Of a stretch of DNA of 64,000 nucleotides, positions 1 to 18,663 are shown in pieces. The notes below the pieces were generated by a model. The model worked only from the letters and a program-made list of their open reading frames with translations. It ran no database searches and was not told the DNA's origin. A program made the position numbers and the translations under genes. Every line of letters starts with the position of its first letter. The stretch's first letter is position 1. Where the stretch lies: positions 28,335 to 92,334 of the forward strand of contig JAUQWZ010000022.1 in NCBI GenBank assembly GCA_030834905.1, given 5' to 3'. The DNA comes from Aggregatilineales bacterium (GTDB lineage: Bacteria; Chloroflexota; Anaerolineae; Aggregatilineales; Phototrophicaceae).

Positions 1-2
1 TG

Positions 3-1763
3 CGGGTCTACGACAGCACCATCGTCGGAAACGTCGCCATCAATGGCGGCGGCGGCATCGTCAGCAACGGGGTTCTGGTGTATTTACGCCGCGTCTCTAT
101 TCGCGAAAATTATGCGGGTGGTGGTGCAGGACTCCAGACCGATTTCAGCGGTAGGCTAGATGCTGAATGCGTACAGTTCTGGGATAATTCCAGTGGCTAT
201 GGTGTTGGCGTATTAAGCGGTGCCAGCAGCAACACCAGCGCGCAGGTAAGCATCCATTACAGCAGTTTATATGGGAATCTGACGATCAATAATCCAAATC
301 CTGAAGAAGATATCTTTAACCTGCTGCCCAACAACGTTAGCATACAGGCGCAGCAGAATTGGTGGGGCGCAGATGGAGTACCTGCCGTATTCGACGGGCA
401 AACGGGCGCGTCAATTGACACGTCATCGGCGCTTTCATTCGACCCGACGATTCCCATCAACGGACAATATGCGATTTCCGAATGTGAGCCACAACTGCCG
501 GAAGTGCCGCCAACTCCCACACCTACTCCCACTCCTACCCCAACGGAGACGCCGACGCCCACCTTTACGCCGACACCTGACCCTGCGTTGCCGTATTACG
601 AACGATTCGAAGGACTGATGTTCTGGATTATGTACAATGAAACTTCACAGAATATAGTAGAGGATCAGTTCGACATAGTGGAAACGGCTGCGAACAATGG
701 GTCGCCCACTGATCCTAACAGAGTAGTTCTAGTCCCTTCATCAGCCAGCTTCCCACGAGAACAGCGTGGAGTACGCTATCTCTTCGGGCGCACAATTCTG
801 AATAACATCCCAGACTACGTACCCGGTTCAGAGGCAGCGGGGTATGAAGGAGGTTATGCATATGGGAGAAATTGGGGAGGGTCTATAAACGATCCAAACA
901 ATACGATATGGAGCAGCTATCAAGGATGCCCTGACACACATGGGTGGAACTACAATGGTGGTACGCTTCCGTCGTATAGCAGTATATACAACGGGACTGC
1001 TCTACAGATTTTGGATTGGTTCAGTGATTATGCTAGTTGCCGCGCTGCTGCTAATCCGAACTTTCAACCACATTATCAGATGTTAATCAGCGTTATCGGT
1101 ACGGCTACGCAGCATCATATAGCTAACACTCCCAATCCGGCTGGCAATGCCTATTACATTCGCAATGCGAATAGTTGCTTCGTCTCTGATCCGCCAGGTG
1201 GTGCTTGCATTACAACAAATACAATCCAAGCATGGTGTACAGGGGCAGGTCGTAACTGTAGAAGTGCAAACGTGTACGTAGAAGAAGTATCTACCGGAGC
1301 AGTGGGCGTTACGGTCGCTGATTGGTACAATTACAATCAACTACCAAGTCAGTATAGTACCCCTATTGCTGAACCCCAAAATCTTGTATTCAACCCGACT
1401 TATCTCTTTGATCCGTTGACCTCTGGGAACCCGCAACAGATAACCTACAACTCACAGGTCGGGGTACATTACCATATCAGTACTGGGCTATACGATGTTG
1501 ATAGTCAGGCACGATATTTCCTAATGGGGATAGGAGCTAGCCAGTTCTCTGAAACCATAGAGTCTGCCTTTGCTAGGCACTGGAATCGATTGAACCGGGA
1601 TCGAACTCCGGTAAATCCAGAAACGCTCTATCCAAGCACCTGCATCAATGCGGCAGCCCACATTACCTTTGGTCAAGGTGCATTTCAAACTTGGGCTACC
1701 TACATTTTCCAAGCCGAAACTCAAACACCAGGAGGTGATATATGGTTCTGCGCCGCACCATGA
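3..1763 (+). CDS. 5'-truncated large secreted/surface protein: beta-helix (Pmp-like) repeats, conserved NWWG module, Pro/Thr linker, variable C-terminal domain (candidate polymorphic effector, cassette 1)
   Basis: Frame is open from position 3 (RVYDSTIVGNVAINGGGGIVSNG...), so the gene starts before the window. GG-rich beta-helix-like repeats, PT repeats at ~512-582, stop TGA at 1761-1763 overlaps the next ATG. Confidence 0.8.
   Translation, partial: RVYDSTIVGNVAINGGGGIVSNGVLVYLRRVSIRENYAGGGAGLQTDFSGRLDAECVQFWDNSSGYGVGVLSGASSNTSAQVSIHYSSLYGNLTINNPNPEEDIFNLLPNNVSIQAQQNWWGADGVPAVFDGQTGASIDTSSALSFDPTIPINGQYAISECEPQLPEVPPTPTPTPTPTPTETPTPTFTPTPDPALPYYERFEGLMFWIMYNETSQNIVEDQFDIVETAANNGSPTDPNRVVLVPSSASFPREQRGVRYLFGRTILNNIPDYVPGSEAAGYEGGYAYGRNWGGSINDPNNTIWSSYQGCPDTHGWNYNGGTLPSYSSIYNGTALQILDWFSDYASCRAAANPNFQPHYQMLISVIGTATQHHIANTPNPAGNAYYIRNANSCFVSDPPGGACITTNTIQAWCTGAGRNCRSANVYVEEVSTGAVGVTVADWYNYNQLPSQYSTPIAEPQNLVFNPTYLFDPLTSGNPQQITYNSQVGVHYHISTGLYDVDSQARYFLMGIGASQFSETIESAFARHWNRLNRDRTPVNPETLYPSTCINAAAHITFGQGAFQTWATYIFQAETQTPGGDIWFCAAP
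315..455 (+). repeat. Arm 1, copy 1 (conserved module FNLLPNNVSIQAQQNWWGADGVPAVFDGQTGASIDTSSALSFDPTIP)
   Basis: 315-370 matches 3037-3092 at 54/56 nt; 347-424 matches 7636-7713 at 77/78 nt (manual alignment). Confidence 0.95.
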
Positions 1764-2983
1764 ACATTTTCAAGTTGTTTGCCCTAATAGTCATTTGGCA
1801 AACATTTATACCTTCCGTTGTGGCTCAAAATGCCTCCCTTACCTTTACTGCTTGGAGTCCCGATGGCATATTTCTAGCAGTTACCAGCGGATCGACCGTA
1901 CAAATAGTCGATGTAGCCACAAGTCAACCAACGAATCAACTTTCGGACTTGTCTGAGCAAGTCACTGCATCATTGTGGAGTCCAGACGGGAGCAGACTAG
2001 CGGTTGCAAATGGTTCTACTTTAGAAATATGGCAGCAACCTTGGGATGGGGGTCTTGCAAGCCTTGAAGCGAGATTACAATCTACCGCATACATTCGCTC
2101 AATGGCATGGAATCCGCAAGGTAACCAAATCGCTATCGCCCATGATGCGGTGGAAGTATGGAATTTGGGAACTCGTACTCAGATTTATAGCGTATACGCC
2201 CATAACGGCTTCATCACGCAAATTTCGTGGAGTCCCGATGGGGCACGGTTTGCTACCACGAGTGTAGACAGGAGCGTAAAAGTCTGGGATGCAGCGACAG
2301 GAGCAATATTAAGCACCATGACTGTTGTGCAAAATTCCAATTTGCCCGTATCCGAAATTTTTACAGTCGCCACGTCAGTCTCATGGAGTCCGGTCAATAC
2401 GGAGTTGGTTTTCGGAGCAGAAGATGGGACAACGCGCCTTTGGAATACGGCTCAGTTAACTGGGAGTGAAGTCAGAACATCTGAAAACAGCCCAGGAGTT
2501 TTTCGTGCTAATGAAGAGGCAGTTCTAGCCGTTGATTGGAATCCTACAGGGACAGAAGTCGCCGCTGGTGCTAGGGATGGTATCGTTTCTATCTGGGATA
2601 CAGAAACAGGTGACCAATTACAAACGTTTCAAAGTGATCTCAGCATAAATTCCGTCTCCTACAGTCCATACGGCGGCAGATTGGCAATAAGTGGAAGTTC
2701 ACCGCTGTCACAAGTAGATACCGACCTTTCGATAAACGCTTCTCAATTTCTTGCCAATGGCGCAGTCCAAATCGTTGTCCCCGCACCCTCACTTGAACGG
2801 CTGCAAACGATTGCGGATGCTTGCAACGCGCCTATTGCCATCGAGCAGTCGCTCACTGCCAGCATCCAAGCCGATCAACTCGCGGATGTAGTCGCACAGG
2901 TTGAAGCGCTGCCGGAGAACACCATCCCGCCCGCCTGCGCCGCCGATTTGATCGCGGTAGCAGAAGCGCTGCAAAGCCAGTAG
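1760..2983 (+). CDS. Secreted WD40 beta-propeller protein with conserved helical C-terminal tail (candidate immunity protein 1)
   Basis: ATGA overlap with upstream stop; signal-peptide-like MNIFKLFALIVIWQTFIPSVVA|Q; repeated WSPDG/WD motifs; tail shared with 8888-10096. Confidence 0.9.
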   Translation: MNIFKLFALIVIWQTFIPSVVAQNASLTFTAWSPDGIFLAVTSGSTVQIVDVATSQPTNQLSDLSEQVTASLWSPDGSRLAVANGSTLEIWQQPWDGGLASLEARLQSTAYIRSMAWNPQGNQIAIAHDAVEVWNLGTRTQIYSVYAHNGFITQISWSPDGARFATTSVDRSVKVWDAATGAILSTMTVVQNSNLPVSEIFTVATSVSWSPVNTELVFGAEDGTTRLWNTAQLTGSEVRTSENSPGVFRANEEAVLAVDWNPTGTEVAAGARDGIVSIWDTETGDQLQTFQSDLSINSVSYSPYGGRLAISGSSPLSQVDTDLSINASQFLANGAVQIVVPAPSLERLQTIADACNAPIAIEQSLTASIQADQLADVVAQVEALPENTIPPACAADLIAVAEALQSQ

Positions 2984-3025
2984 CTTCACGCTCACAAAGG
3001 GCGCATCCACGCGGGTGCGCCCGTT
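2906..3025 (+). repeat. Arm 2, copy 1 (WD40 3' end, stop codon and hairpin)
   Basis: 115/120 nt identical to 10019-10138; includes hairpin GGGCGCATCC-ACGC-GGGTGCGCCC at 2999-3022. Confidence 0.95.
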
Positions 3026-3036
3026 TCCCTTGAACA

Positions 3037-3092
3037 TTTAACCTGCTGCCCAACAACGTAAGCATACAGGCGCAGCAGAACTGGTGGGGCGC
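3037..3092 (+). repeat. Arm 1, truncated copy (untranslatable fragment FNLLPNNVSIQAQQNWWGA)
   Basis: 54/56 identical to 315-370; in-frame stops at 3031-3033 and 3100-3102; 3069-3092 is identical to 7636-7659. Confidence 0.95.
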
Positions 3093-3094
3093 TG

Positions 3095-4273
3095 ATGACT
3101 AACTCTGCAATTGAAGACGCTAAACAGGCGGCGCTGTCAGTGCTGCTCCACAATGCTCACGGAGACTATCACGGGCTGCCGCGTACCGCCGGGTGGGGCT
3201 ATGCCGAACCCTACACCCGCGACCTGATGATCGCCAGCCTGGGGATGCTGGTGACCGGCGATCAAACCCTGCTGGCGTCTACGCGGGCGGTTCTGGAAGC
3301 GCTGGCGTCGAACCAGACGCCGCTGGGACACATTCCCGGCTTAGCGCACGATCCCGGCGATCTTGGCTCCAGCGATACGACGCCGCTGTTTCTCATCGGG
3401 CTGGCGCTGTTTCGCGCGGCGGCGGGCGAGGCGCGCTTTCTCTCTGCTGCTGCCGAAAAGGCGCTCACCTGGCTGCGATATCAGAGTCCCGATAACAGCG
3501 GGCTGGTGGCGCAGCAGCCGACCAGCGACTGGCGCGATGAACAGTGGGTGCCGGGCTTTGGGCTGTACGTCAATACGCTGGTCTACATCGCGCTGCGGCT
3601 CTGGGATCGCAGCGAAGAAGCTGACGCGGTGGGGCGGCTCATCAATTTGCCCATCGTCAGGGCGGGCTGGAAGGATGCTCACGTCCACGAAGGCTTAGCC
3701 ATTCCTGACAAGCCTTACTATGCCCTGTGGTCATACAAAGTCCACAACAGCGAGCGCTTTGATTTGCTCGGCAACAGTCTGGCAGTCCTGTCGGGCGCGG
3801 CGTCGCCGGCTAAAGCCAGCCAGATGGTGGACTGGATCGAATCCCAGTGTCAGGCGCTCCAGCGAAACCATGCGCTGGCGGTGAATCTGCCGCCCTGTCT
3901 GTTTCCCTACATTCAGCCCGGCGATGGCGACTGGAACCCGCGTTATCAGCAGTTTAACCAGCCGGGCGAGTATCACAACGGCGGTCTGTGGCCCTTTGCC
4001 ATCGGCTTCTACATCGCCGCGCTGGTCGCTGCCGGACGCGCTGACCTTGCCAGCGACAAGCTTGATCTTCTGACCGAGCTAATCCGCCTCGCGCGGCAGG
4101 TCAACGTCACCTTCGGATTTAATGAGTGGCTGCGGGCGCAGGATGGAACGCCGCGCGGGCAGGACTGGCAGACGTGGTCGGCGGCGATGTATCTGTACGC
4201 GGCGGCGGCGGTTGAAGAAAATCGGACGCCGTTTTTAGACCATCTGCGCGGGCAAAACAGCGCTGCCGGATAA
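3095..4273 (+). CDS. Glycoside hydrolase, (alpha/alpha)6 type (GH100/amylo-alpha-1,6-glucosidase-like)
   Basis: Motifs GWGYAEPYTRD, DWRDE, YHNGGLWPF, QDWQTWSAAMY. Confidence 0.75.
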   Translation: MTNSAIEDAKQAALSVLLHNAHGDYHGLPRTAGWGYAEPYTRDLMIASLGMLVTGDQTLLASTRAVLEALASNQTPLGHIPGLAHDPGDLGSSDTTPLFLIGLALFRAAAGEARFLSAAAEKALTWLRYQSPDNSGLVAQQPTSDWRDEQWVPGFGLYVNTLVYIALRLWDRSEEADAVGRLINLPIVRAGWKDAHVHEGLAIPDKPYYALWSYKVHNSERFDLLGNSLAVLSGAASPAKASQMVDWIESQCQALQRNHALAVNLPPCLFPYIQPGDGDWNPRYQQFNQPGEYHNGGLWPFAIGFYIAALVAAGRADLASDKLDLLTELIRLARQVNVTFGFNEWLRAQDGTPRGQDWQTWSAAMYLYAAAAVEENRTPFLDHLRGQNSAAG

Positions 4274-4326
4274 GCCGAACGGGACGCATCCACACGGATG
4301 CGTCCCATTCAGCGCGTCCTCCAGTT

Positions 4327-4659
4327 TCAGGGGATCTCCGGCGCGTCAGCGTCGTCGTTTTCGAGGAAGTGCTTCAGCCGCACCAGGCGTTCATCCCACT
4401 TGAAGCCGATTTCCTTGATCCATTGATCGACTTCCTTCAGCGGGTCGGGTCTGAAGCTGTAACGTTTTTCACGTCCCGCCTGATAGACGGTGACCAGCCC
4501 GGCATCTTTGAGGATGTGCAGATGCTTGATAATCCCCTGTCGGGTGATCGGGTATTCCTCTGCGAGCTGGGTCGCCGTCCTGGGGCTGTGTTCCGCCAGG
4601 TTCACCAGCAAATCCCGGCGCACCGGGTCAGCCAGCGCGGCGAAAACGGGTCTGTCCAT
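4327..4659 (-). CDS. ArsR/SmtB family transcriptional regulator
   Basis: VFAALADPVRR...ITRQGIIKHLHILKDAGLV; paired with an SRPBCC gene. Confidence 0.9.
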   Translation of the reverse strand: MDRPVFAALADPVRRDLLVNLAEHSPRTATQLAEEYPITRQGIIKHLHILKDAGLVTVYQAGREKRYSFRPDPLKEVDQWIKEIGFKWDERLVRLKHFLENDDADAPEIP

Positions 4660-4822
4660 AGTTCATGCGGCAGGTTTCCGCCCTCCAGATATGATGTCAG
4701 ACTAAAGTATTGTCTGTGGGCGCAGCACTGCTGCGCCCCTGCTTTCAACTTTACACTTGCGACTCAGTACTCTCCTACAGCCGCCGAATGTCTTAAGGTG
4801 CTCGACTCGTTTGGCTAAGCCG

Positions 4823-5749
4823 CTAAAAACCCTGTGGTATCGGCAGGCTGTAGCCCTCGATCACGGCTTTCACGTTCCCCAGCATCATACCAAAGCCGAA
4901 ACTGTTCTGCTCCATATCGGTCCAGCGAATAGCGTCCGGCACCGATTCATAGCCGGAATAGATCAGCGTCAGGCGCGTGCCGCCAGCTTCCTCTTTCAGC
5001 ACCCAGTCGGTGGTATACGATGCTTCTTCGCCTTCCGGCACCGAGCGCGTCATCAGTCGATGAGGCGGATCGACCACTTCGAGGATCTGGACGTACATTT
5101 CTCCACCCGTTTCCGGGTTCTCCACGTAAAGCCGCGCGCCCACGCCCGTCCCCGTCACCTTAAACGTGGTTCCCGGCGCAAACCACTGCTCGATCTGCCC
5201 CGGATCGGTCAGCGCCTGCCACACGCGCTGGCGCGACGCTTTGATCCAGATGCTGCGTTCGAGCGAGACGCTGTCTTTTGATTCGCGCCAGAAGCCCAAC
5301 AGCGGGCTGACATAAGCGTGCGGGAACGGCAGGTCGGCGCTGGCGAGATAGGCTTTCAGGTTTTCCAGCGTCTTTTCCCAGCCAGCCCGGATCTGATCGA
5401 GCCGATCCTCGCGGGCATCTTCCGGCAGCGCTTCAAATCCACTCATGGTCACGGTGACGCGCGTGCCAGCCTGCTCCTCGTCCAGTCTGTAGGTGGTGAT
5501 GATCTGGCGTTCCGGCACGCTGCGCAGGGCAGCTTCGCGCGGCGGGTTCACCAGTTCCAACTGGAACACGTCAATTCCCATCTCTCCCATGTGGATCGTG
5601 ACCTTGCCGCTGTCATCACGGGTCATTTGCGCGCCCGGCAGGTTGGGCACAAACCACTGCGCCACCTGTTCGGGGTTGGTCACCGCTTCCCATACTCGCT
5701 CGCGCGGAGCGCCAATCCAGATGCTGCGTTCAACGGTTATCGTCTGCAC
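4823..5749 (-). CDS. Tandem SRPBCC/AHSA1 domain protein
   Basis: Two repeats of ERSIWI.A.R.RVW.A.T.P.Q..QWF; GTG start with AGGAGG upstream. Confidence 0.9.
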   Translation of the reverse strand: MQTITVERSIWIGAPRERVWEAVTNPEQVAQWFVPNLPGAQMTRDDSGKVTIHMGEMGIDVFQLELVNPPREAALRSVPERQIITTYRLDEEQAGTRVTVTMSGFEALPEDAREDRLDQIRAGWEKTLENLKAYLASADLPFPHAYVSPLLGFWRESKDSVSLERSIWIKASRQRVWQALTDPGQIEQWFAPGTTFKVTGTGVGARLYVENPETGGEMYVQILEVVDPPHRLMTRSVPEGEEASYTTDWVLKEEAGGTRLTLIYSGYESVPDAIRWTDMEQNSFGFGMMLGNVKAVIEGYSLPIPQGF

Positions 5750-5766
5750 GTCCTATGCCTCCTATG

Positions 5767-5784
5767 TGTAACCAAACGGTTGCA
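5767..5784. promoter_or_regulatory. Putative operator of the ArsR-SRPBCC operon
   Basis: Imperfect inverted repeat TGTAACC-N4-GGTTGCA just upstream of the SRPBCC ribosome-binding site. Confidence 0.45.
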
Positions 5785-5931
5785 TATACTGTATTAGAAA
5801 AAGCGTTCTATGTCAAGTCATTCGCCAGGGCAGGTTTCAGCATCGTCGCCCCGGCGTCCGATTCTCGTCACTTGCTCCTAAGCATCTGGTGGCTTAAACT
5901 GTACACAGAGCAGTCTCAGAGAACACGCACT

Positions 5932-7530
5932 ATGATGGCAACACCGCCCGACGACCTGATCGGCAAGACACTTGGACAGTTTGAAATTCTGGACGAAATC
6001 GGACGCGGCGGCATGGCAACCGTTTACCGCGCCCGCCAGCGTTCGATTAATCGCATGGTGGCGGTCAAAGTGCTGCCGCGCGCGCTGCTGCACGACCCCA
6101 GCTTTTACGAGCGCTTCACTCGCGAAGTGGACGTGATCGCCCATCTTGAACACCCGCACATTCTGCCGATTTACGACTATGGCGAAGTTGAGGGCATCCC
6201 CTACATCGCCATGCGCTATCTCGCCGGGGGCAGTCTGGCGCAGGTGATTCGCCGCGGGCTGATGCCGCTGGAGCAGTTGATCAAGCCGTTCTCGCAGATC
6301 GGGCAGGCGCTGGATCACGCGCACCAGCAGGGCGTCATCCATCGCGATCTCAAGCCGGGAAATATCCTGCTCGATGAGCGCGGCAACGCCTACCTGTCCG
6401 ATTTCGGCATCGCCCGCGTCCTCAACAGCAGCCTGACCGGCAGCGCCATCATCGGCACGCCCGCTTACATGAGTCCTGAACAGGCGAACGGCTATCCGCT
6501 GGATGGTCGCTCGGATGTTTACGCGCTGGGCGTGGTGTTGTTCGAGATGATCGCCGGACGCGAGCCGTTTGAAGCCGAAACGCCGGTTGCCATGCTGATG
6601 AAGCACATCAACGAGCCGATGCCTCCTATTCGCCAGTTCCGTCCGGGTACGCCAGAGGCGGTTGAGCAGGTGCTTTTCCGGGCGACGGCGAAACATCCCG
6701 ACCAACGCTTTCCGTCGGCGGGCGATCTGGCGGCTGCCTTCAGCGAAGCGGTCTATCAACCGGCGTCGCGCCCGATGATGCCGCCCATCAATCAGGACGA
6801 TACGCCCACGATGATCCCCGAAGCTGGCTCGGCGGCACGTCTCACGCCGTCGCATCTCACCCCGCCCGCGCAGACCACATCGCCAGCGGATCAGCATCCG
6901 ACCACGTTTGAATCGCACCACCCGGCACAAAGCCGCCTGCCAGCGCTGCTGATCGGGCTGGTTTTGGTGGTCGTCGTGGTTGGCGCGGCGGTGCTGTTCA
7001 TCGCCACCCGCCCGTCGGATATCCCGCCGACTCCCACGCCGCCGGTTGTCGCCCTGCCAACGCCGTTTGCCAACGCGCGGGTGGCTCGTGCCGATACCTA
7101 TACGCTCTCGGTGCCGGATAGCTGGCGGTTCACCGATCTGTCGGCGGACGATGGCGTGCTGACTCACGTCTGGCAGGATGGGCTGGACGCCTACATCGGC
7201 TTATCGCTGATCCCGGCGGAGATAGGCAATCAGGATGCTTTCCGGGGGCAGATCACCGCCTACCTCGCAGACCACTACGCCGAAGACGCCTATACGTTCG
7301 TGGACGAAGCCATCGCGCCGGACGGCACAGTGCGCCGCAGCTACCGCCTGTTTGGGCAGGTACAGCCCGAATTCGCGCCCGGACAGACCGACACCTTCTT
7401 CTTCAACCGCGCGCCCTATTTCGTCGTGCTTGAGCTTTACGCCTCGGACGCATACGGCAGCGACCTCGTGCCGCAGTACCAGCAGGTGCTCGATTCGCTC
7501 CGCATCCTCCCGCAGGTCGAGCAGGGGTAA
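5932..7530 (+). CDS. Membrane-anchored Hanks-type Ser/Thr protein kinase
   Basis: GRGGMATVY, VAVK, HRDLKPGN, DFG, GTPAYMSPE motifs; transmembrane helix and extracellular C-terminal domain. Start taken at MMATPP. Confidence 0.95.
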   Translation: MMATPPDDLIGKTLGQFEILDEIGRGGMATVYRARQRSINRMVAVKVLPRALLHDPSFYERFTREVDVIAHLEHPHILPIYDYGEVEGIPYIAMRYLAGGSLAQVIRRGLMPLEQLIKPFSQIGQALDHAHQQGVIHRDLKPGNILLDERGNAYLSDFGIARVLNSSLTGSAIIGTPAYMSPEQANGYPLDGRSDVYALGVVLFEMIAGREPFEAETPVAMLMKHINEPMPPIRQFRPGTPEAVEQVLFRATAKHPDQRFPSAGDLAAAFSEAVYQPASRPMMPPINQDDTPTMIPEAGSAARLTPSHLTPPAQTTSPADQHPTTFESHHPAQSRLPALLIGLVLVVVVVGAAVLFIATRPSDIPPTPTPPVVALPTPFANARVARADTYTLSVPDSWRFTDLSADDGVLTHVWQDGLDAYIGLSLIPAEIGNQDAFRGQITAYLADHYAEDAYTFVDEAIAPDGTVRRSYRLFGQVQPEFAPGQTDTFFFNRAPYFVVLELYASDAYGSDLVPQYQQVLDSLRILPQVEQG

Positions 7531-7557
7531 TACCGTACCCGCATACCAACCGGACAG

Positions 7558-7590
7558 GAGCCGTCATGAATAATGGACGGCTCTTTTGTT
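7558..7590 (+). terminator. Rho-independent terminator after the kinase, directly upstream of orphan cassette 2
   Basis: GAGCCGTC-N10-GACGGCTC followed by TTTTGTT. Confidence 0.75.
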
Positions 7591-8857
7591 ATGCTGTGAT
7601 TGTGGCAAGCTGGTACCGAATGATGTGACCATTATGGCGCAGCAGAACTGGTGGGGCGCAGATGGAGTACCTGCCGTATTCGACGGGCAAACGGGCGCGT
7701 CAATTGACACGTCGCAGGCGCTTTCGTTTGACCCAACAATACCTAACCCTGTCACTGGACTGTATGACGTGCCGCAGTGTGCGCCTGCAGCTCCAGAAAC
7801 GCCGCCCACGCCCACACCGACCTTTACGCTGACACCGACGCCTACCAATACCCCGACACCGACGAATACGCCGACCTACGCGCCTTCGACCTCTTTAGAC
7901 CTCAATGGCACGAATAGCGGGCTGAAAGCGGTGATCTTCTGGGCGATATTCCATGAGTCCAGTTCAGATAACTTCGATTCGGGTAGTCCCGTTGATAATT
8001 TTGACTTAGGCAACCCTCGATTCGCCAGTTTCCTATTCAATAACCCATATTGCTCACCTGGCAGTGTTCCAGGCGACAATGCCGCTGAATCACCATTCCA
8101 AAATTGGTACATCCGTCACTGTCCATATGATTATCGTTATATGGTTGCTCAGACGATGTTCAATGGATTCTTGAACTATGAACGGCGGTTCGGCGTAAAT
8201 AGCGCATTCGAGTATGCCGAGCAAAACTTCGGTGGCTCGATTGGAAACACCGCTGCTGGTTTATGGCTAATCTCAGATTGCCAGGTAAATCAGTATGGCA
8301 CAAGCTATGCCGCAGCCCGAGTGAGCAGTGGTCAAAGTACCGCCTATGCAAACGCAATCGGATGGCTCACTGAATATATGACCTGCCTAGCTGGTTTGAG
8401 CACTACCGATTACACCCCAATACGGGTACAACGAGCGTACCAGAGTACCATTTGGTCACAGATCAATGTAGCCGTAAATGATTTCTACACTGATCCTCAA
8501 GACTACACAGATGGCGCTTTTCAAGCCAAAGTCATTAATTTCGGAGCAACACGAACACTGGTTACTTGCGTTGGAGGCTGCTATATCCAGGGGACATCAG
8601 GTGTTGTCTACACTTACGAGTCACCACAAGATCAATTTCTTGGTTTTGCGACAACACCAGTCACAAATATAAGTCAAGCAGACGTAACTGATGCATACAA
8701 CACTCACATGACACAAATCAGCAGTTACACTCCAAGTTTCCACTCAGTTGCGCAACCGATTCTGATTTACAGCTATAACAGTGGAAATCATGTTGGTTAC
8801 GTGTGGGAAACAGAAATTTATCAACAAACGACAGATATGTCTCACACCCCTAGGTAG
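7586..8857 (+). CDS. Orphan C-terminal cassette 2: arm 1 module, Pro/Thr linker and variable domain; lacks the N-terminal body (possibly silent)
   Basis: Begins directly with arm 1 (KLVPNDVTIMAQQNWWG...); in-frame stop at 7571-7573; no signal peptide or clear RBS; possible ATG at 7634. Confidence 0.7.
   Translation: MLCCDCGKLVPNDVTIMAQQNWWGADGVPAVFDGQTGASIDTSQALSFDPTIPNPVTGLYDVPQCAPAAPETPPTPTPTFTLTPTPTNTPTPTNTPTYAPSTSLDLNGTNSGLKAVIFWAIFHESSSDNFDSGSPVDNFDLGNPRFASFLFNNPYCSPGSVPGDNAAESPFQNWYIRHCPYDYRYMVAQTMFNGFLNYERRFGVNSAFEYAEQNFGGSIGNTAAGLWLISDCQVNQYGTSYAAARVSSGQSTAYANAIGWLTEYMTCLAGLSTTDYTPIRVQRAYQSTIWSQINVAVNDFYTDPQDYTDGAFQAKVINFGATRTLVTCVGGCYIQGTSGVVYTYESPQDQFLGFATTPVTNISQADVTDAYNTHMTQISSYTPSFHSVAQPILIYSYNSGNHVGYVWETEIYQQTTDMSHTPR
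7636..7743 (+). repeat. Arm 1, copy 3
   Basis: 7636-7713 is 77/78 identical to 347-424; similarity then decays, mostly at third codon positions. Confidence 0.95.
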
Positions 8858-8887
8858 CTAGCCGCATAGCATAAGGAGAAACGACTG

Positions 8888-10096
8888 ATGAAGAAACCAT
8901 CCTATATTATTTTGCTCATCAACATGATCTTGGTATTCAGTCTTCTAAGTCTCGGCTTAAAAGCTTTTGCTCAGAGTACAAAGGGAGATGTCAGTGCTCT
9001 ATCGTGGAATCAAGATGGGGTGCGGCTCGCTATTGGCTTTGAATCTGGACTAATTGAAGTCGTAAATACACAGACTGGAGAAACGGTATTCACCAACTCG
9101 GCGTTACAACGAGTAGCCTCTTTGGATTGGAGTCCTCTCTATTTAGACTATTTAGCGGTAGGAGGAAACACAGGAAGTCTAGCGGGTACAGTAATTGTTA
9201 TAAACACCCTTTCCAATCAGATTCAATACTCTCTAGAAAGCGGTGAAAGTCTCAGTTCTACCGCGTGGAGTCCTGATGGCACAAAGATTGCAGCAACAAG
9301 TAACATCGTCGGTACACCTATAACTTCAAGGAATGAAGTCCGAGTTTGGGATGCTGGCACAGGAGAGTTATTAACGAATTCGCTGTTCTCCATTGGCCCA
9401 ATCACGTCCATTGCTTGGAGTCCTACTAGTCAGCAGATTGCGGGTTCAACTACTGATCATGTCACGTTGATTTGGGATGTCGCTACGGGAGCGGTCATAC
9501 ATACTCTTACGGGACATACGGACGTAGTAATGTCTGTTGCATGGAGTTCCGACGGTCGTCAGCTAGCTACTACCGGAAGTGTTCTTGACAACACAGTCAG
9601 GATTTGGAACGCAGATACGAGCGAGAACATTTCCTCGTTTCCGAGTAGATTCGGGATAGTGAGATGGAGTGCTGTTGGCAACCTGTTAGCTATTGGCGAG
9701 AGTGGCTCCTTAAGACTCTTGGATGCTGGCACAGGGGAAGAATTTGGATCGATCCAACTGAATGCGGTGAGCCGTGCATTCGCATACAGTCCCTATGGTG
9801 GACGACTTGCATTAGCTGGTTCAGCTCCATCAACTCACACAATGGAGAACGCTGTCCAAACACTTGCCAACGGTGCCGTCCAAATCGTCGTTCCCGTCCC
9901 TTCGCCCGAACGGCTGCAAGCGATTGCCGATGCATGCAACGCGCCTGCCGCTGTCGGGCAATCGCTGACTGCCAGTCTGCAAGCCGACCTACTCAGCAGC
10001 TTCATCGCACAGGTGGAGGCGCTGCCGGAGAACACCATCCCGCCCGCCTGCGCCGCCGATTTGATCGCGGTGGCAGAAGCGCTGCAAAGTCGGTAG
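8888..10096 (+). CDS. Secreted WD40 beta-propeller protein with conserved C-terminal tail (candidate immunity protein 2)
   Basis: AAGGAG RBS; signal peptide ...LKAFA|Q; WD repeats; tail LANGAVQIVVP...ALPENTIPPACAADLIAVAEALQS shared with 1760-2983. Confidence 0.9.
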   Translation: MKKPSYIILLINMILVFSLLSLGLKAFAQSTKGDVSALSWNQDGVRLAIGFESGLIEVVNTQTGETVFTNSALQRVASLDWSPLYLDYLAVGGNTGSLAGTVIVINTLSNQIQYSLESGESLSSTAWSPDGTKIAATSNIVGTPITSRNEVRVWDAGTGELLTNSLFSIGPITSIAWSPTSQQIAGSTTDHVTLIWDVATGAVIHTLTGHTDVVMSVAWSSDGRQLATTGSVLDNTVRIWNADTSENISSFPSRFGIVRWSAVGNLLAIGESGSLRLLDAGTGEEFGSIQLNAVSRAFAYSPYGGRLALAGSAPSTHTMENAVQTLANGAVQIVVPVPSPERLQAIADACNAPAAVGQSLTASLQADLLSSFIAQVEALPENTIPPACAADLIAVAEALQSR

Positions 10097-10138
10097 CATC
10101 ACGCTCACAAAGGGCGCATCCATGCGGGTGCGCCCGTT
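10019..10138 (+). repeat. Arm 2, copy 2
   Basis: 115/120 identical to 2906-3025; hairpin at 10112-10135. Confidence 0.95.
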
Positions 10139-10249
10139 CTCACCCTGTACCCATGTCCATTCGATCTGTATAATGCCTTGTCCTCGCAGCAAACATGGTC
10201 GTTCGCTGTACCCCACTTAGCACTTCCATAAGAACTTTGCTAGAACTCC

Positions 10250-12381: not shown

Positions 12382-12446
12382 AGCCAGCCCTCATCCCCAG
12401 CCCCTCTCCCTCAGGTAGAGGGGGAATATGCGGGGGTTTCTAAGGC

Positions 12447-12471
12447 GGACACGACATTGTCGTGTCCCTAC
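12447..12471. repeat. REP-like hairpin, family GGACACGAC-N3-GTCGTGTCC(CTAC)
   Basis: Related copies at 13700-13724, 16177-16199, 19343-19367, 41781-41805, 52784-52808 and 54332-54356, all intergenic. Confidence 0.85.
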
Positions 12472-12544: not shown

Positions 12545-13675
12545 TTAGCGGGGGATGCCCCAGAGGCGCAGGGTGGCGTCGTAGCCGGATGAGGCGAGCA
12601 GCGTGCCATCGGCGTTGAAGGCGAGGGCGGTGACTCCCGAGGCGTGACCTGTGAGCGAAACGAGCGCGGGCGTGTCGGGGCTGGCGAGGGCGGCGGTTAC
12701 GTCCCACAGATGGATGGCGCGGTCGAGGCTGGCGGAAGCGATCAGGCGACCATCGGGGCTGAAGGCGACGGCGGTGACGGCGCGAATATGCCCGAACAGG
12801 CGGGCGCGTTCGCCGCCTGCTGCGGCGTCCAGCAGGCGAACGGTGCCGTCACTGCGACCCTGGGCGATGAGCGTGCCGGTGGGATCGGTGACCTCGGCGG
12901 GCGGGTCTGACGGCTGGCTGATCGGGCGCTGCGCCATCTGCCCGGTCTGGAGATCCCAGGTATAGGCGGAACCGCTGTCTGAGATGGCGGTGACAGCGGT
13001 CGGAGACTCGAACGTCAGGGCGTTGAGGGGACACATGAAGCCGGGGATGGCGCGGCGCTGGAGCGACGGCGATACCATCTCGACTGAATCGCAGTAGCCG
13101 ATGCGGGCGAAGCCGCCGCTGGCGCTGAACGCCAGTTGATCCGGCGAGGCGTAGGACTGACCAAGACTTTCGAGGGTGGCGTACTCGGTCAGCGAGTCCA
13201 TGTTCCAGAGGCGAACGACGCCGCTGCTGTCGCCGCTGGCAAGCAGGGAACCACTGGCGCTGAAGGCGAGGCTGGCGACGGCGTAGAGATGGCTCTCAAA
13301 GCTGGCAAGTGGGGACAGCGAAGCGCTGTCCCAGACGTGGACGGTGCCATCGTCGCTGCCCGCCGCGATATGGCGGGCGCTGAGGGCGAGGCTGGCAGCG
13401 CCTGCTGGCAGTTCCAGCAGAACCGGAGAAGACTCGGGGATGCTGGCGTCGCGCAGCCAGACGCCGATAGACGAGGCGATCCCCAGCGTGTGACCATCGG
13501 GCGACCAGGCGAGGCTGCGGGCGCTGCCGCTGCCCAGCCGGGCGATCTGCGCCAGCGACCCGGCGCTGTCAGGCGTGATGCGATCAAGCGGCGGGAGCAC
13601 AAAATCGCCCTGCGCCCGGACGACGAACGGCAGCAGCAGAGATAGCAGGATGAGCAGGTATCGAAACACGGTCAT
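12545..13675 (-). CDS. Secreted WD40 repeat protein
   Basis: Signal peptide MTVFRYLLILL...VRA|Q; GH...V.A.AFS.DG.L.AS...D.T..LW repeats. Confidence 0.9.
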   Translation of the reverse strand: MTVFRYLLILLSLLLPFVVRAQGDFVLPPLDRITPDSAGSLAQIARLGSGSARSLAWSPDGHTLGIASSIGVWLRDASIPESSPVLLELPAGAASLALSARHIAAGSDDGTVHVWDSASLSPLASFESHLYAVASLAFSASGSLLASGDSSGVVRLWNMDSLTEYATLESLGQSYASPDQLAFSASGGFARIGYCDSVEMVSPSLQRRAIPGFMCPLNALTFESPTAVTAISDSGSAYTWDLQTGQMAQRPISQPSDPPAEVTDPTGTLIAQGRSDGTVRLLDAAAGGERARLFGHIRAVTAVAFSPDGRLIASASLDRAIHLWDVTAALASPDTPALVSLTGHASGVTALAFNADGTLLASSGYDATLRLWGIPR

Positions 13676-13790
13676 GCCTTTACAGATTCGGGACAGGGCG
13701 GACACCACATTGTCGTGTCCCTACTTGGCAGGCGGACAGTTCAATTCTACACTAAGACGCTTGTGAGCAGAACAGCCTGACGACTGCCCG

Positions 13791-14844: not shown

Positions 14845-15525
14845 ATGAACTTCAGCTTTGATGCGAGATCATCCGATTTGCCGCTGGTCGAATTTATCTG
14901 GCGCACGCAAAGCGACCAACCCGGTACTTTTATGTCTACCGCCGAGAGCAATTGGGAGATGGTCATTACGCGGCAGAAAGGAAAAACATGGCTCACGGTG
15001 CGCGGACCGGAGACGAAGGCATCGCTCGCGCCAGTGCCAGCAGAGGCGGAATTCTTCGGGATTGCCTTTAAGATGGGCACGTTCATGCCTCATCTGCCCG
15101 TCAGGGCGCTGGTAGGCAGAGGCATCAATCTGCCAGAGGCGAACAGCAGCGCTTTCTGGATGGATGGCGCTGCCTGGGAGTTTCCCACGTTTGAAAACGC
15201 GGACACGTTTGTCAGACGGATGATGCGCCAGGAGATGCTGGTGACCGATCCGGTGGTGGAAGCGGTGTTACAAAACCATCCCCACGACTGGTCGATTCGC
15301 ACCGTCCGGCGGCGGTTCGTGCAGGCAACCGGACTGACGCACAAAGCGATCCAGCAGATCGGACGCGCCAAAGAAGCGGTAGCGCTGCTGAAGCAAGGGC
15401 GACCAATCCTCGACGTAGTCTACGAAACTGGCTACTTCGATCAGGCGCACATGACCAAATCGCTGAAGCATTTTCTCGGACAAACGCCAGCGCAAATCCT
15501 CAAGGTCAGCCAACCGAATCAGTGA
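14845..15525 (+). CDS. AraC family transcriptional regulator
   Basis: C-terminal GYFDQAHMTKSLKHFLGQTP helix-turn-helix. Confidence 0.9.
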   Translation: MNFSFDARSSDLPLVEFIWRTQSDQPGTFMSTAESNWEMVITRQKGKTWLTVRGPETKASLAPVPAEAEFFGIAFKMGTFMPHLPVRALVGRGINLPEANSSAFWMDGAAWEFPTFENADTFVRRMMRQEMLVTDPVVEAVLQNHPHDWSIRTVRRRFVQATGLTHKAIQQIGRAKEAVALLKQGRPILDVVYETGYFDQAHMTKSLKHFLGQTPAQILKVSQPNQ

Positions 15526-15604
15526 CCCTTTTTTACAAGACCTGGCTGCCAGTTTCATCTATCCTGTAGACATAGACCAACGTATTACTCATGAGGAGCA
15601 TATC

Positions 15605-16141
15605 ATGCGCAAATTAGTTGTCACTGAATTCCTATCCCTTGACGGCGTGATGGAAAACCCGGGGTGGACGTTTCCTTACTGGAATGACGAAACCGCCAAA
15701 TTCAAGGGCGATGAGGGTGAAGCCGCTGATGCCCTGCTGCTGGGGCGCGTGACCTATGATGGGTTTGCGGCAGCCTGGCCCACCAGCAAGGACGAAGGGG
15801 CAGACTACTTCAACAGCATCCGCAAATACGTGGTGACCACGACGCTCGACAAGGCGGAGTGGAACAACTCTGTCCTGATCAAAGAGGACGTCGTGGAAGA
15901 AATCAACCGGCTCAAGCAGCAGGATGGCAAGAACATCATCGTTCACGGCAGCGGCAGGCTGATTAAAACCCTGATGCAGCACGATCTGGTGGATGAATAC
16001 CGCTTTCTCATCTATCCGCTTGTGCTGGGCAAGGGGCAGCGCCTGTTTGACGACGACCACACGGTGAAGCTGAAGCTGGTCGAGTCCAGTGCTACCAGTA
16101 AAGGCGTTGTCGCGGTAGTCTACGAGCCGATGCGCCAGTAA
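15605..16141 (+). CDS. Dihydrofolate reductase-like (RibD C-terminal domain) protein
   Basis: FLSLDGVM, LLGRVTY, GSGRLI...LVDEY...YPLVLGKGQRLF. Confidence 0.9.
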   Translation: MRKLVVTEFLSLDGVMENPGWTFPYWNDETAKFKGDEGEAADALLLGRVTYDGFAAAWPTSKDEGADYFNSIRKYVVTTTLDKAEWNNSVLIKEDVVEEINRLKQQDGKNIIVHGSGRLIKTLMQHDLVDEYRFLIYPLVLGKGQRLFDDDHTVKLKLVESSATSKGVVAVVYEPMRQ

Positions 16142-16344
16142 ACCGACGATTGGCTGCAATGGAACAAGTGACTTCACGGACACCACAATGTGGTGTCCGT
16201 TTTGATTGCTGCCAATAACCAGTGGCACGCTTCAGACGCGGACACAGCATAGAGACAGTGTTAAGCCTGTGCCAGCACAAACGCCGACTATAATAAAGTA
16301 ACACCAGGGTATCAGATACCCGACAGTGAAAAGGACGCTTCACC

Positions 16345-16372
16345 TATGAGTATGAGCGTATGAGTATGAGCG
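16345..16372 (+). repeat. Perfect 14-bp tandem duplication over the kinase start codon
   Basis: TATGAGTATGAGCG x2 (16345-16358 and 16359-16372). Confidence 0.95.
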
Positions 16373-18663
16373 CCATTGAATTACTGACGCTGCTCACTCA
16401 GGCAGTTTATATCCTGCTTTCCATCGTCACCGTGATCGCTTATATCCGGTATCGGGACGTGGTGCGGCGCGACGTGGCGCTGACGTTCAGCGTGCTGGCG
16501 ATTCCCTTTTATGTGCAGGTGGCGGTTCAGCTTTATCCGAACTTTTCAGTCCCAGCGCTGACCCTGATGGGGGCGGTGTCGGTCTTTGCCTTAGTGGCGC
16601 AGCCGTATCTGCTGCTGCGGCTGGTGCGCTACTTCTGGCACATTCCCCGGCTGTTTCTGCTGGCGGCGCTGATCGTGATGCTGGCGGCGTGCGCGGGTTT
16701 TTACCTGATCTTCACAACCGGAACTGACATTCCCATTGTGGTTCCCCTGTTCAATGGTTACCTTGCCGTAGTGGGCGGCTACGTCGTGTTCAGCTTTGTA
16801 CGCGCCGCGCTGTTCAGTACCGGGGTTATTCGCTGGCGCAGGCGATTCGCGGCGGTGGGCGCAAGCCTGCTGGTGATGCTGCTGTGGCTGTCAGCGCTTC
16901 AGCGGTTCTTTCCGGCGCTGGCGAATTTGTCGGGCGCGTTTACGCTGGTGGTGGCAGTCGTGGCGGCGTTCTGCTTCTATCTGGGCTTCGCGCCGCCGCG
17001 CTGGCTGCGCCGCGCATGGCAGGTCAACGAGTTTCGCGACTTTCTGTTACAGTCCCTCAGCAAGCATCAATCGGGCGAAACCAGCGCGGCGCTGACCTTG
17101 CAGGTGCTGGGGTCAATCGCGCTGCAAACCGTCAACGGCATGGCTTCCGCCGTCGTTCAGCCGGATGAAGCAGGTGGCGGCTGGGTGACGCGCGCCAGCA
17201 GCGGCGATGCCAATCTGGACGGACTGGCAGAGGAAGGCGCGTGGCTGTTCGCGGACATGATGAAGCAGGGCAAGCCGCGCGCGCTGCGCAAGGGAGATCG
17301 CTTCGACGGTAGCACGCCAGCATGGTGGGATCGCCTCGATGCTGGCATGATGATGCTGGTGCCAGTGGCGACGGTGGCACGCACCTGGGGGATTCTGGTC
17401 GTCTTTCTCAAGCGCGGCTCGATCTTCGCCGACGATGACCTGGAGATGCTGATTCTGCTGGCGCAGCACAGCGCCATTCTGCTGGAGAACTACGGGCTGG
17501 TTGACGAACTGAGCCGTTATTCGCATATGCTGGAACGGATCGTCGAGCAGCGAACGGCGGAACTGGGCGAGCGCGAAGCGCAGTACCGGCAGATCGTCGA
17601 AACGGCGCAGGAAGGCATCTGGTCGGTGGGCGCGGACAATAAGACCCGCTTCGTGAATCCCTGCATGGCTGCCATGCTTGGCTATACCTTTGACGAGATG
17701 CTGGAGATGCCGGTGTCGCAGATTCTGGACACGGACAGCGCCGCCGACGTGATGACAGACGTGAACAGACCGGCAGGCAGCGTGTACCAGCAGGAAGTGA
17801 AGCTGCGGCGCAAGGATGGCAGTATGATATGGGGGTTGCTGTCCGCCGACCATCTGCTCGAAACCGATGGGCAGGGCGAAGGCTTTCTGGCAATGGTGGT
17901 CGATATCACCGACCGCAAGCACGATGAAGAGGAGATTCGCCAGCTAAACGCCGAACTGGAAGAACGGGTGGCGGAACGGACAGCGCAGTTGAGCATCGTC
18001 AACCGGGAACTGGAAGCCTTCAGCTATTCGGTGTCTCATGACCTGCGCGCGCCGCTGCGAGCGCTGGACGGCTTCAGCCAGGCGCTGATCGAAGACCACG
18101 CCGAACGGCTGGACGGGCAGGCGCTGAACTTTCTGGAGCGTATCCGGGCAGCCAGCCAGCGTATGGGGCAGTTGATCGACGACCTGCTCCAGCTATCGCG
18201 GCTCTCGCGCGCCGAGATGCGACACGACGCGGTCGATTTAAGCGAGCTGGCTCAGCAGATAGCCGCCGAACTGGTCGAACAGGAACCGGAACGGCAGATA
18301 GAAATCAGGCTGGCAGCCGGGCTGACCGCCAGGGGCGACGAACGACTGCTGCGGGTGGCATTGAGCAACCTGATCAACAATGCCTGGAAGTACACGCGCA
18401 AACAGCCGACTCCCTGTGTTGAGTTTGGCGCTACTGAGCATAATGGCAAACAGGCATATTTCGTGCGTGACAACGGTGCCGGGTTCGATATGACCTATGC
18501 AAACCGCTTGTTTGGGGCATTTCAGCGCCTGCACAGTTCAAGCGAGTTTGAAGGCACCGGCATTGGCTTGGCAACGGTACAGCGGATCATCCACCGGCAT
18601 GGCGGCGAAATCTGGGCAGAGGCGGCGGTCGATAATGGCGCTACGTTTTATTTCACGCTTTAG
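16360..18663 (+). CDS. Multi-TM sensor histidine kinase (GAF, PAS, HisKA, HATPase)
   Basis: FSYSVSHDLRAPL H-box, N box NLINNAWKY, DNGAGF, GTGIGLA. Confidence 0.95.
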   Translation: MSMSAIELLTLLTQAVYILLSIVTVIAYIRYRDVVRRDVALTFSVLAIPFYVQVAVQLYPNFSVPALTLMGAVSVFALVAQPYLLLRLVRYFWHIPRLFLLAALIVMLAACAGFYLIFTTGTDIPIVVPLFNGYLAVVGGYVVFSFVRAALFSTGVIRWRRRFAAVGASLLVMLLWLSALQRFFPALANLSGAFTLVVAVVAAFCFYLGFAPPRWLRRAWQVNEFRDFLLQSLSKHQSGETSAALTLQVLGSIALQTVNGMASAVVQPDEAGGGWVTRASSGDANLDGLAEEGAWLFADMMKQGKPRALRKGDRFDGSTPAWWDRLDAGMMMLVPVATVARTWGILVVFLKRGSIFADDDLEMLILLAQHSAILLENYGLVDELSRYSHMLERIVEQRTAELGEREAQYRQIVETAQEGIWSVGADNKTRFVNPCMAAMLGYTFDEMLEMPVSQILDTDSAADVMTDVNRPAGSVYQQEVKLRRKDGSMIWGLLSADHLLETDGQGEGFLAMVVDITDRKHDEEEIRQLNAELEERVAERTAQLSIVNRELEAFSYSVSHDLRAPLRALDGFSQALIEDHAERLDGQALNFLERIRAASQRMGQLIDDLLQLSRLSRAEMRHDAVDLSELAQQIAAELVEQEPERQIEIRLAAGLTARGDERLLRVALSNLINNAWKYTRKQPTPCVEFGATEHNGKQAYFVRDNGAGFDMTYANRLFGAFQRLHSSSEFEGTGIGLATVQRIIHRHGGEIWAEAAVDNGATFYFTL

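Follow-up and report, generated by a model that had tools for sequence, protein, structure and literature searches.

A candidate polymorphic cassette system of secreted effectors and WD40 partners, with conserved DNA arms on both sides, in Aggregatilineales (Chloroflexota)

Polymorphic toxins are well mapped in Proteobacteria, Firmicutes and Bacteroidota and hardly in the filamentous Chloroflexota that dominate mats, sludge and sediments. In the pilE/pilS system of Neisseria and vlsE of Borrelia, variable cores sit between conserved segments, promoterless silent copies lie near the expression site and the constant parts evolve in concert; a single surface antigen is varied in this way, evading host immunity. 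In AprA/AprI of Pseudomonas and in staphopain/staphostatin, a secreted hydrolase has a dedicated, downstream-encoded binding partner for self-protection, and these pairs are conserved and single-copy, with small non-propeller inhibitors and neither orphan cassettes nor arms. The polymorphic toxins (CdiA/CdiI, Rhs, MafB/MafI) combine a constant secreted body, alternative C-termini and a specific downstream partner gene, and a Sec-only ("T2SS/Sec") class is recognised among them; in the parts of that survey drawn on here, the only beta-propellers named are repeats inside the bodies of toxins (Zhang et al. 2012, PMC3482391). In Pseudomonas aeruginosa, the exported, disulfide-bonded partial beta-propeller Tsi1 blocks the amidase Tse1 (PMC3391265). 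Here we describe a locus at the 5' end of a 64,000-nt stretch of DNA (the window: positions 28,335 to 92,334 of contig JAUQWZ010000022.1, assembly GCA_030834905.1, Aggregatilineales bacterium) which is, on balance, probably a polymorphic system of secreted effectors and cognate partners specific to Aggregatilineales, in which the effector would act as toxin and the partner as its immunity protein.

As in polymorphic toxins, a secreted body with an alternative C-terminus is followed by a partner gene. In cassette 1 the window holds the 3' two-thirds of a carrier gene (1-1763, + strand), namely the end of a beta-helix (1-314), arm 1 (315-445, encoding the beta-helix end FNLLPNNVSIQAQQNWWGADGVPAVFDGQTGASIDTS), a PT linker (446-578) and the payload CT1 (579-1763). 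The contig extends 28 kb upstream of the window, and the full carrier gene (contig C56:27587-30097) starts 747 nt before it, behind a strong AAGGAGG ribosome-binding site; its 836 aa comprise, in order, an N-terminus that resembles a signal peptide on inspection (MQPKRSKLLLLGVILALLFSISPPLLAQE), a stretch rich in PT, a beta-helix of about 250 aa with only weak resemblance to Pectate_lyase_5/Chlam_PMP in Pfam, arm 1, the PT linker and the payload. The sequence-only reading of this DNA had placed cassette 1 on a long beta-helix body; the beta-helix is there, but the complete protein is not long, and the idea of a long filament was rejected. That reading had also expected a signal peptide and secretion genes further 5', of which the predicted signal peptide was found, with no dedicated secretion apparatus nearby. 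WD40 partner 1 (1742-2983, +) consists of a signal peptide, a 7-blade-type propeller to about 2734 and a constant two-Cys helical tail (2735-2983); payload gene and partner gene overlap by 22 nt at the payload stop, and the partner's AGGAGG site lies inside the payload gene.

Cassette 2 begins with an orphan gene (7586-8857, +; 423 aa, called from TTG) that contains arm 1'' (7636-7743), a PT linker and the payload CT2 (7874-8857). WD40 partner 2 (8888-10096, +) follows, with a signal peptide, a divergent propeller, the constant tail and its own AAGGAG ribosome-binding site. In Pfam both partners are WD40 proteins (PF00400, E 8e-33 for partner 1 and 1e-16) that also match many propeller families; both genes have strong Shine-Dalgarno sites and N-termini that look like signal peptides on inspection, and exact-sequence look-ups of both proteins gave no recorded match.

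The coordinates and identities first given for the arms, 77/78 and 115/120, are exact. The near-identical core of arm 1 (347-424) differs from 7636-7713 at the sole position 359, and the wider match (347-445 vs 7636-7734) reaches 93.9% (blastn, E 7e-39). Arm 2 (2735-3025, +) and arm 2' (9848-10138, +) each cover the partner's tail and 42 nt beyond the WD40 stop codon, in arm 2 across a terminator-like hairpin (2999-3022). They are 84.6% identical over 293 nt (blastn, E 1e-80), 95% over the final 134 nt (core 2892-3025) and differ at 5 positions of the 120 in 2906-3025 vs 10019-10138. Runs of exact identity in the arms measure 53-65 nt, the longest of 65 nt being in arm 1. Runs of this length are sufficient for RecA-dependent exchange. 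Between the arms, as had been claimed from visual comparison, the cassettes cannot be aligned: blastn finds a single marginal match of 37 nt, located in the PT-linker region. Identity between the payload proteins is 24% over 92 aa, and the partners are about 30% identical in the propeller, about 88% in the last 75 aa and 38% overall.

The cores also differ in composition. CT1, CT2 and both propellers have a GC content of 0.46-0.48 and a third-position GC content (GC3) of 0.40-0.44, while GC3 is 0.60-0.69 in the arms and 0.74-0.77 in the four genes between the cassettes; flanking genes have a GC content of 0.60-0.64 and the genome 0.594. The earlier suggestion that the cores are richer in AT thus holds, and low GC3 of payload plus propeller against host-like arms recurs in four relatives (G007, G008, G016 and G052), making five genomes with the window's own. 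This pattern fits either a shared cassette pool of lower GC or GC-biased conversion acting on the recombining arms only.

A third arm reveals the origin of cassette 2. Arm 0, 92 nt long, lies 140-230 nt upstream of the carrier start and is 91% identical to 7510-7600 (arm 0', +; blastn, E 4e-31). It starts about 20 nt inside the 3' end of a kinase gene (…PQVEQG*), so that arm 0' comprises the kinase's last ~20 nt and a terminator-like hairpin (7558-7583; 8 bp, then TTTTGTT), whereas in the copy upstream of the carrier the coding relic …PQAEQG* persists without an attached gene. Behind arm 0' lies a diverged remnant of the beta-helix end (7601-7635, +), which reads GKLVPNDVTIM vs FNLLPNNVSIQ and has about 56% DNA identity to 315-346. 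Arm 0 and this remnant together identify cassette 2 as the copy of an entire paralogous locus, a copy without signal peptide and deleted at its 5' side, where it lost the DNA from arm 0 to the last beta-helix codons. It is a silent store: the upstream arm, arm 1 and arm 2 are kept, while the promoter-proximal DNA, the signal peptide and the beta-helix are lost, and the payload gene, devoid of a ribosome-binding site, stands directly behind hairpin 7558-7583. The orphan C-terminal module proposed at first is therefore a silent, 5'-truncated cassette as expected, but one derived from an entire locus with its own arm 0.

These same features could describe a decayed segmental duplication, in which copy 2 would be a pseudogene and the patches of similarity would reflect sporadic gene conversion. 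Indeed, cassette 2 has neither signal peptide, ribosome-binding site nor promoter-proximal DNA and sits behind a terminator-like hairpin, arm 0 indicates that the whole locus including its upstream DNA was once copied, and the arms were not found elsewhere, neither in the genome nor, by the arm 1 pattern, in metagenome contigs. Genome-wide (5.29 Mb, 63 contigs), arm 1 occurs at two sites plus one 61-nt fragment, and arm 2 at two sites only. However, identity reaches 91-95% in the non-coding arms and only 24-33% (amino acids) in the coding cores, as between genomes, a contrast that simple divergence cannot produce. The CT2 frame is intact over 1.2 kb, keeps 21 of 22 family-conserved positions and yields a confident structural model (see below); CT1 and CT2 are each closer to members in other genomes than to each other; and the same design recurs independently, with another payload family, in the related genome G008. 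Decay of a duplicate is therefore improbable as an account of the locus. Still less credible is an assembly artefact, in which the assembler would have joined DNA of different strains at short repeats. The source is a metagenome-assembled genome (MAG), and its arms have exact runs (53-65 nt) at which small-k assembly steps could go astray, but these runs are shorter than the final k-mers of usual assemblers, a single 93.5-kb contig contains both copies at a distance of 7 kb, the host genes that separate and surround the copies are coherent, and independent assemblies of other genomes have the same architecture.

Arm 1 bears the trace of an exchange. In the alignment and its mismatch map, identity between the two copies switches at 7635/7636 from about 56% before to 99% after, and this jump marks a breakpoint of recombination or conversion within arm 1. 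Moreover, 11 nt past arm 2 of cassette 1 lies an arm 1' vestige (3037-3097, +), a copy of the start of arm 1, 61 nt long and 95% identical to 315-375, which stops at the ATG of the next gene, a glycosidase; 24 nt of it (3069-3092) are identical to 7636-7659. It looks as if an orphan cassette formerly abutted cassette 1 and left this stump. The identity jump together with the vestige demonstrates a past exchange at arm 1. As to the 4.4-kb block that now separates the cassettes, we considered its arrival by insertion into the abutting orphan, bounded by the 24-nt repeat 3069-3092/7636-7659, and by crossover with another degraded carrier locus; both were set aside, as each leaves arm 0' and the helix end 7601-7635 unexplained in one step.

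Relatives of the locus were found in Anaerolineae/Aggregatilineales MAGs, in agreement with the Chloroflexota host that had been guessed from the sequence. The design is clearest in G008, where an 8-kb array holds three units of a payload with an HExxH motif followed by a WD40-tail gene. The first starts with a partial payload gene. The second has an orphan payload (L039:1991-3355), devoid of a signal peptide, 4 nt after the preceding WD40 stop. The third has a full-length, 734-aa secreted gene, which shares 235 nt of pre-linker sequence (86%) with the orphan; the three tails are 91-97% identical in DNA. This HExxH payload is the commonest payload family in relatives. Its motifs are VHE[FL]GH, RGWGSGP, FQQNP and E[AT]AADxFLNWVY, the first and last conserved in 12 aligned sequences; 22 open reading frames (ORFs) match the family model, the family is gluzincin-like by motif only, and it has no Pfam, NCBIfam or PDB match.

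The carrier body itself, used as a query (residues 110-420), retrieved two homologues with other C-termini. The first (P0106, an NCBI Chloroflexi MAG; 38%) reads …NNWWGNDNNTP…, then a linker and an HExxH payload, and the second (P0105; 44%) reads …QNYWGADGVPN… before an unrelated C-terminus of about 1000 aa with no Pfam matches; each gene is followed by a signal-peptide WD40 gene. These homologous beta-helix carriers are thus 38-44% identical, including the NWWG pre-linker, and homologous secreted bodies bear at least three unrelated payloads. In the P0105 locus (L076 569-4597, JGI metagenome 3300037311), which represents a third payload family, the overlapping 607-aa signal-peptide WD40 gene has a long C-terminal extension. 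CT2-type payloads are found on a LamG+PD40 body (P0012, 74%), on a beta-helix end (P0013, 65%) and, for CT2-like ones, on homologues of the window's beta-helix body (P0053, P0041 and P0076), and CT1-type payloads on PD40, LamG-like, beta-helix and other bodies. A signal-peptide WD40 gene overlaps or follows each payload gene examined. Partner propellers score 92-207 bits in same-type pairs and 38-82 bits in cross-type pairs (ten non-independent comparisons), which indicates that the propeller co-varies with the payload.

In one further genome (L038, G048:C15), the ORF at 15033-16835 encodes a signal-peptide protein of 600 aa that matches no family. The ORF runs 4 nt into a WD40-tail gene, behind which lies another gene of that kind; the protein may be a further payload type.

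The locus and its relatives therefore present alternative payloads on a constant secreted body, a downstream WD40 partner that co-varies with them, constant arms on both sides and silent 5'-truncated cassettes, and this modular architecture and its exchange are well supported. Silent cassettes that share a homology segment with a full-length gene (cassette 2, the vestige and the G008 orphan), partner-only arrays, patchy distribution and atypical composition are all shared with polymorphic toxins. On the other hand, the body here is short, at about 440 aa; the payloads, of 330-390 aa, are large and come from families not yet described; a secreted WD40 propeller of 400 aa takes the place of a small immunity protein; and there is a second homology arm at the partner's 3' end, making payload and partner replaceable together. 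In Pfam searches of the carrier and of 47 longer members of its payload family, no RHS, RHS/YD, FHA/TPS, LXG/WXG, PAAR or MafB/DUF1020 domain and no processing protease was found. In this set the system differs from CdiA/CdiI, the TPS domain, FHA repeats, VENN motif and cdiB not being found and the neighbouring genes being metabolic or regulatory; from Rhs/YD toxins, there being no RHS match and the body being a ~250-aa beta-helix; and from MafB/MafI, there being no DUF1020 (MafB-N) match. In contrast to pilE/pilS and vlsE, two genes (an enzyme-like payload and its partner) vary jointly, in an environmental bacterium. The carrier, both payload families and the tail gave nothing beyond WD40 and the weak beta-helix in Pfam, NCBIfam, PHROGs and PADLOC, and a targeted full-text literature search returned no paper whose title or abstract describes the system, which bears out its description as undescribed.

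The second arm turned out to belong to a wider family. The constant tail (77 aa, …VQIVVPxPSxERLQxIAxxCxAP…ALPxxxIPPACAADLxAVAxAL) occurs in 20 of the 52 genomes searched in the window's genus, on signal-peptide WD40 ORFs of about 400 aa that are often clustered, and has no Pfam, NCBIfam or PDB match. Among named genome records it is found only in Chloroflexota/Anaerolineae/Aggregatilineales MAGs, save two bins labelled as cyanobacteria. These two, JAHHHY010000008.1 (L047/L052, "Pleurocapsa minor") and CAKZMO010000728.1 (L058, "uncultured cyanobacterium"), carry WD40-tail genes, and one of them falls in the window's genus; they are probably mislabelled or mis-binned. Partners in other lineages have other C-terminal extensions, such as PD40, and one has a weak, sub-threshold CBM6 match (E 0.0014).

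Tails from one genome share 82-94% of their protein and 86-94% of their DNA sequence, against 53-81% (protein) between genomes, while the propellers are about 19-42% identical in every comparison and 25-35% within a genome. In trees of 27 genes from 10 genomes, the tail tree requires 9 changes of genome label, the minimum (shuffled mean 20.1, shuffled minimum 17), and the propeller tree of the same genes requires 17, within the shuffle range (mean 20.1, minimum 16). DNA identity continues 16-54 nt past the stop codons of tail genes, which means that the tails are homogenised at the DNA level, beyond protein conservation. Arm 2 is therefore a general property of the WD40-tail family, whose tail evolves in concert in each genome; in the paralogues of G022 and G048 the 5' (signal-peptide) arms are shared as well. 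A second arm inside the partner gene, which the sequence-only reading had regarded as unusual, is present but not peculiar to this pair, being the tail of that family; the window's own arms were met nowhere else, the arm 1 pattern having no match in metagenome contigs. The family shows, in a clean natural case, concerted evolution limited to 75 residues of genes that are otherwise anciently divergent.

Two tandem WD40-tail genes with no payload gene lie in G022 (L040, G022:C580, 4420-6894, - strand), with signal-peptide arms 96.5%, tail arms 91% and propellers 35% identical; one of them is 48% identical to WD40 partner 2 of the window and looks like an orphan copy of that partner type. The gene directly upstream of the 53 WD40-tail ORFs belongs to the HExxH family in 13 cases, with 4 more that are truncated and were recognised by the family model, is another WD40-tail gene in 6 and belongs to the window's payload family in 2.

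CT1 and CT2 belong, as distant members, to a single family: five of its sequences align coherently, and CT2 matches CT1-type proteins of two other genomes (E 4e-9 and 1e-7); homologues of CT1, at 44-51% identity, sit on other carriers. The family is small, a profile search of 1.84 billion cluster representatives giving only 103 members, 73 of them at E <= 1e-10, with the payload domain within a few residues of the C-terminus in most. In the 47 longer members the N-terminal parts include PD40 propellers (16), DPPIV_N-type propeller matches (8) and also LamG/3-keto-disaccharide-hydrolase, Chlam_PMP beta-helix, malectin, SH3 and PKD domains. The AlphaFold2 model of CT2 (57-sequence alignment) has a mean predicted local distance difference test score (pLDDT) of 93.9 and a predicted template modelling (TM) score of 0.93, with a helical lobe (residues 16-206) and a beta lobe (217-317); that of CT1 (5-sequence alignment; pLDDT 45) is unusable. 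A Foldseek search of the CT2 model against PDB and BFVD gave nothing better than E 0.3 (TM < 0.2), and the family's sequence profile found no solved relative among PDB sequences. Among the positions conserved in 80% or more of 57 domains are F22, W23, E28, N97, W131, C136, W164, Y168, C171, H278, Y285, W311 and Q317 (CT2 numbering), and the domains have a median of 8 cysteines. This suggests a disulfide-rich extracellular domain with one conserved Glu and His and many aromatics, compatible with a glycan- or envelope-directed enzyme. A lysozyme-like or SleB identity (SLT, GEWL, Hydrolase_2) was considered and is unsupported, with no Pfam match at E <= 10 and only non-significant Foldseek hits to phage LT_GEWL/SleB (E 0.39-4.8).

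In the mechanism that we favour, a predicted Sec-secreted body ends in a PT linker and an exchangeable payload, and the next gene, translationally coupled or close behind, provides a secreted WD40 propeller that co-varies with that payload and is prolonged by the constant two-Cys helical tail. The exchangeable unit is payload plus propeller, foreign-looking in its low GC, between a host-like arm 1 and arm 2. The payload may be an extracellular enzyme directed against the envelope of neighbouring cells, and the propeller may bind and neutralise its own payload outside the cytoplasm, giving immunity or self-protection, by analogy with Tsi1 and Tse1. The likeness to that pair (PMC3391265) lies in an exported beta-propeller-like protein encoded beside a presumed hydrolase, neutralisation outside the cytoplasm being a property of Tsi1; the differences are that Tsi1 is a small partial propeller, that Tse1 is delivered by type VI secretion (T6SS) into the Gram-negative periplasm, and that this pair has no arms, no cassette polymorphism and no constant tail. 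The tail would be a shared functional module, perhaps, and this is a guess, one that docks at the surface of the producing cell. RecA-type recombination or gene conversion through the homology of arm 1 and the tail would replace payload and partner in one step and would keep toxin and antidote matched, so that the two-arm design would be an answer to the problem of matching them during cassette switching. Payload-less WD40-tail genes, in tandem arrays in relatives, would then be orphan immunity genes. Toxicity, immunity and actual switching are what we infer from this arrangement; the recombination at arm 1 and the concerted evolution of the tail have left direct traces. The locus offers a Sec-only system, a new class of secreted WD40 partner of large size and two payload families not described before, one of which has a confident model yet no fold relative that could be detected. 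Should the payloads be lytic enzymes that have protein inhibitors, it also offers candidate new enzyme-inhibitor pairs.

Several observations weigh against a polymorphic toxin system. A 400-aa secreted WD40 protein is far larger than typical immunity proteins. No ORF lies within range upstream of 18 of the 53 WD40-tail ORFs, and the WD40 family may have a payload-independent function. The window's payload family is present in only 4 of the 52 genomes of the genus, both payload families are devoid of a curated match, and an activity is known for none of the components. No recombinant form was found: a degenerate DNA pattern of the arm 1 peptide had 0 matches in metagenome contigs, and no strain was found in which the window's carrier bears CT2. 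The swapping of C-termini onto the carrier, as first proposed, is supported by the three unrelated payloads on homologous carriers of relatives and not by an observed swap of CT2 onto the window's carrier. The within-genome identity of the arms could be a gene-conversion by-product with no adaptive role, no secretion apparatus or mobile-element gene is found among the genes surrounding the locus, and the source genome is a MAG (95.8% complete, 2.3% contamination).

Part of this fits a secreted hydrolase, serving nutrition or remodelling of the cell's own wall, with an inhibitor of the pro-enzyme style, a folding helper or a surface scaffold as partner, on the model of AprA/AprI or staphopain/staphostatin, shuffled through PT linkers, the arms being conversion by-products. 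The modules of the carriers (PD40, LamG/3-keto-disaccharide hydrolase, malectin, beta-helix) are common in secreted hydrolases, PT linkers are present, a partner has the weak, sub-threshold CBM6 match, the HExxH payload looks protease-like, many WD40-tail genes stand alone, and neither dedicated secretion apparatus nor mobile element lies nearby. But housekeeping pairs would not be expected to be hypervariable, patchy (the 4 of 52 genomes again) and marked by a GC3 of 0.40 vs 0.75, nor to leave silent 5'-truncated copies and partner-only paralogue arrays, and three unrelated payload families occur with one partner type and one carrier type. We regard this explanation as doubtful, though it deserves to be kept in mind beside the polymorphic effector system.

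A bolder extension of the effector system, which we put forward only tentatively and hold to be rather unlikely in its entirety, is that WD40-tail genes form a lineage-specific repertoire of extracellular inhibitors, each hypervariable propeller neutralising one secreted enzyme, own or foreign, and each tail docking in a genome-specific manner. The arms would be a capture site at which a double crossover installs a weapon and its shield together, payload-less arrays would be acquired defence islands, and the window's payload would represent a new envelope-attacking fold.

The genes around the locus are ordinary (aldolase, PNPOx-like protein, alpha/beta hydrolase, amylase, kinases, ArsR, SRPBCC). 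The intervening 4.4-kb block (3095-7530), defined by Pfam matches and composition, encodes a GH100/GDE-like glycosidase (+), an ArsR-type regulator (-), a double AHSA1/SRPBCC protein (-) and a Ser/Thr kinase (+). The SRPBCC gene (4823-5749, -) has two AHSA1 domains and an internal tandem duplication (5175-5260/5646-5731), its halves being 76% identical in DNA. Ser/Thr kinase genes adjoin cassette loci in two genomes (window 5755-7530; L006 8567-10642; L039 8172-11753), an adjacency that may be due to chance; the G008 kinase, of 1193 aa, lies directly after the array and has a long C-terminal region that is repeat-rich by eye.

Further downstream, a third signal-peptide WD40 gene (12545-13708, -) has no constant tail, a high, host-like GC content of 0.68 and a GC3 of 0.82, and is 24% identical to partner 1; it seems to encode a different class of secreted WD40 protein. 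It is flanked by a 21-nt perfect palindrome, GGACACGACATTGTCGTGTCC, at 12444-12471 and 13697-13724. With compensatory variants such as GGACACCACATTGTGGTGTCC, this palindrome has 224 genomic copies at <=2 mismatches and constitutes a REP-like family of dispersed hairpins.

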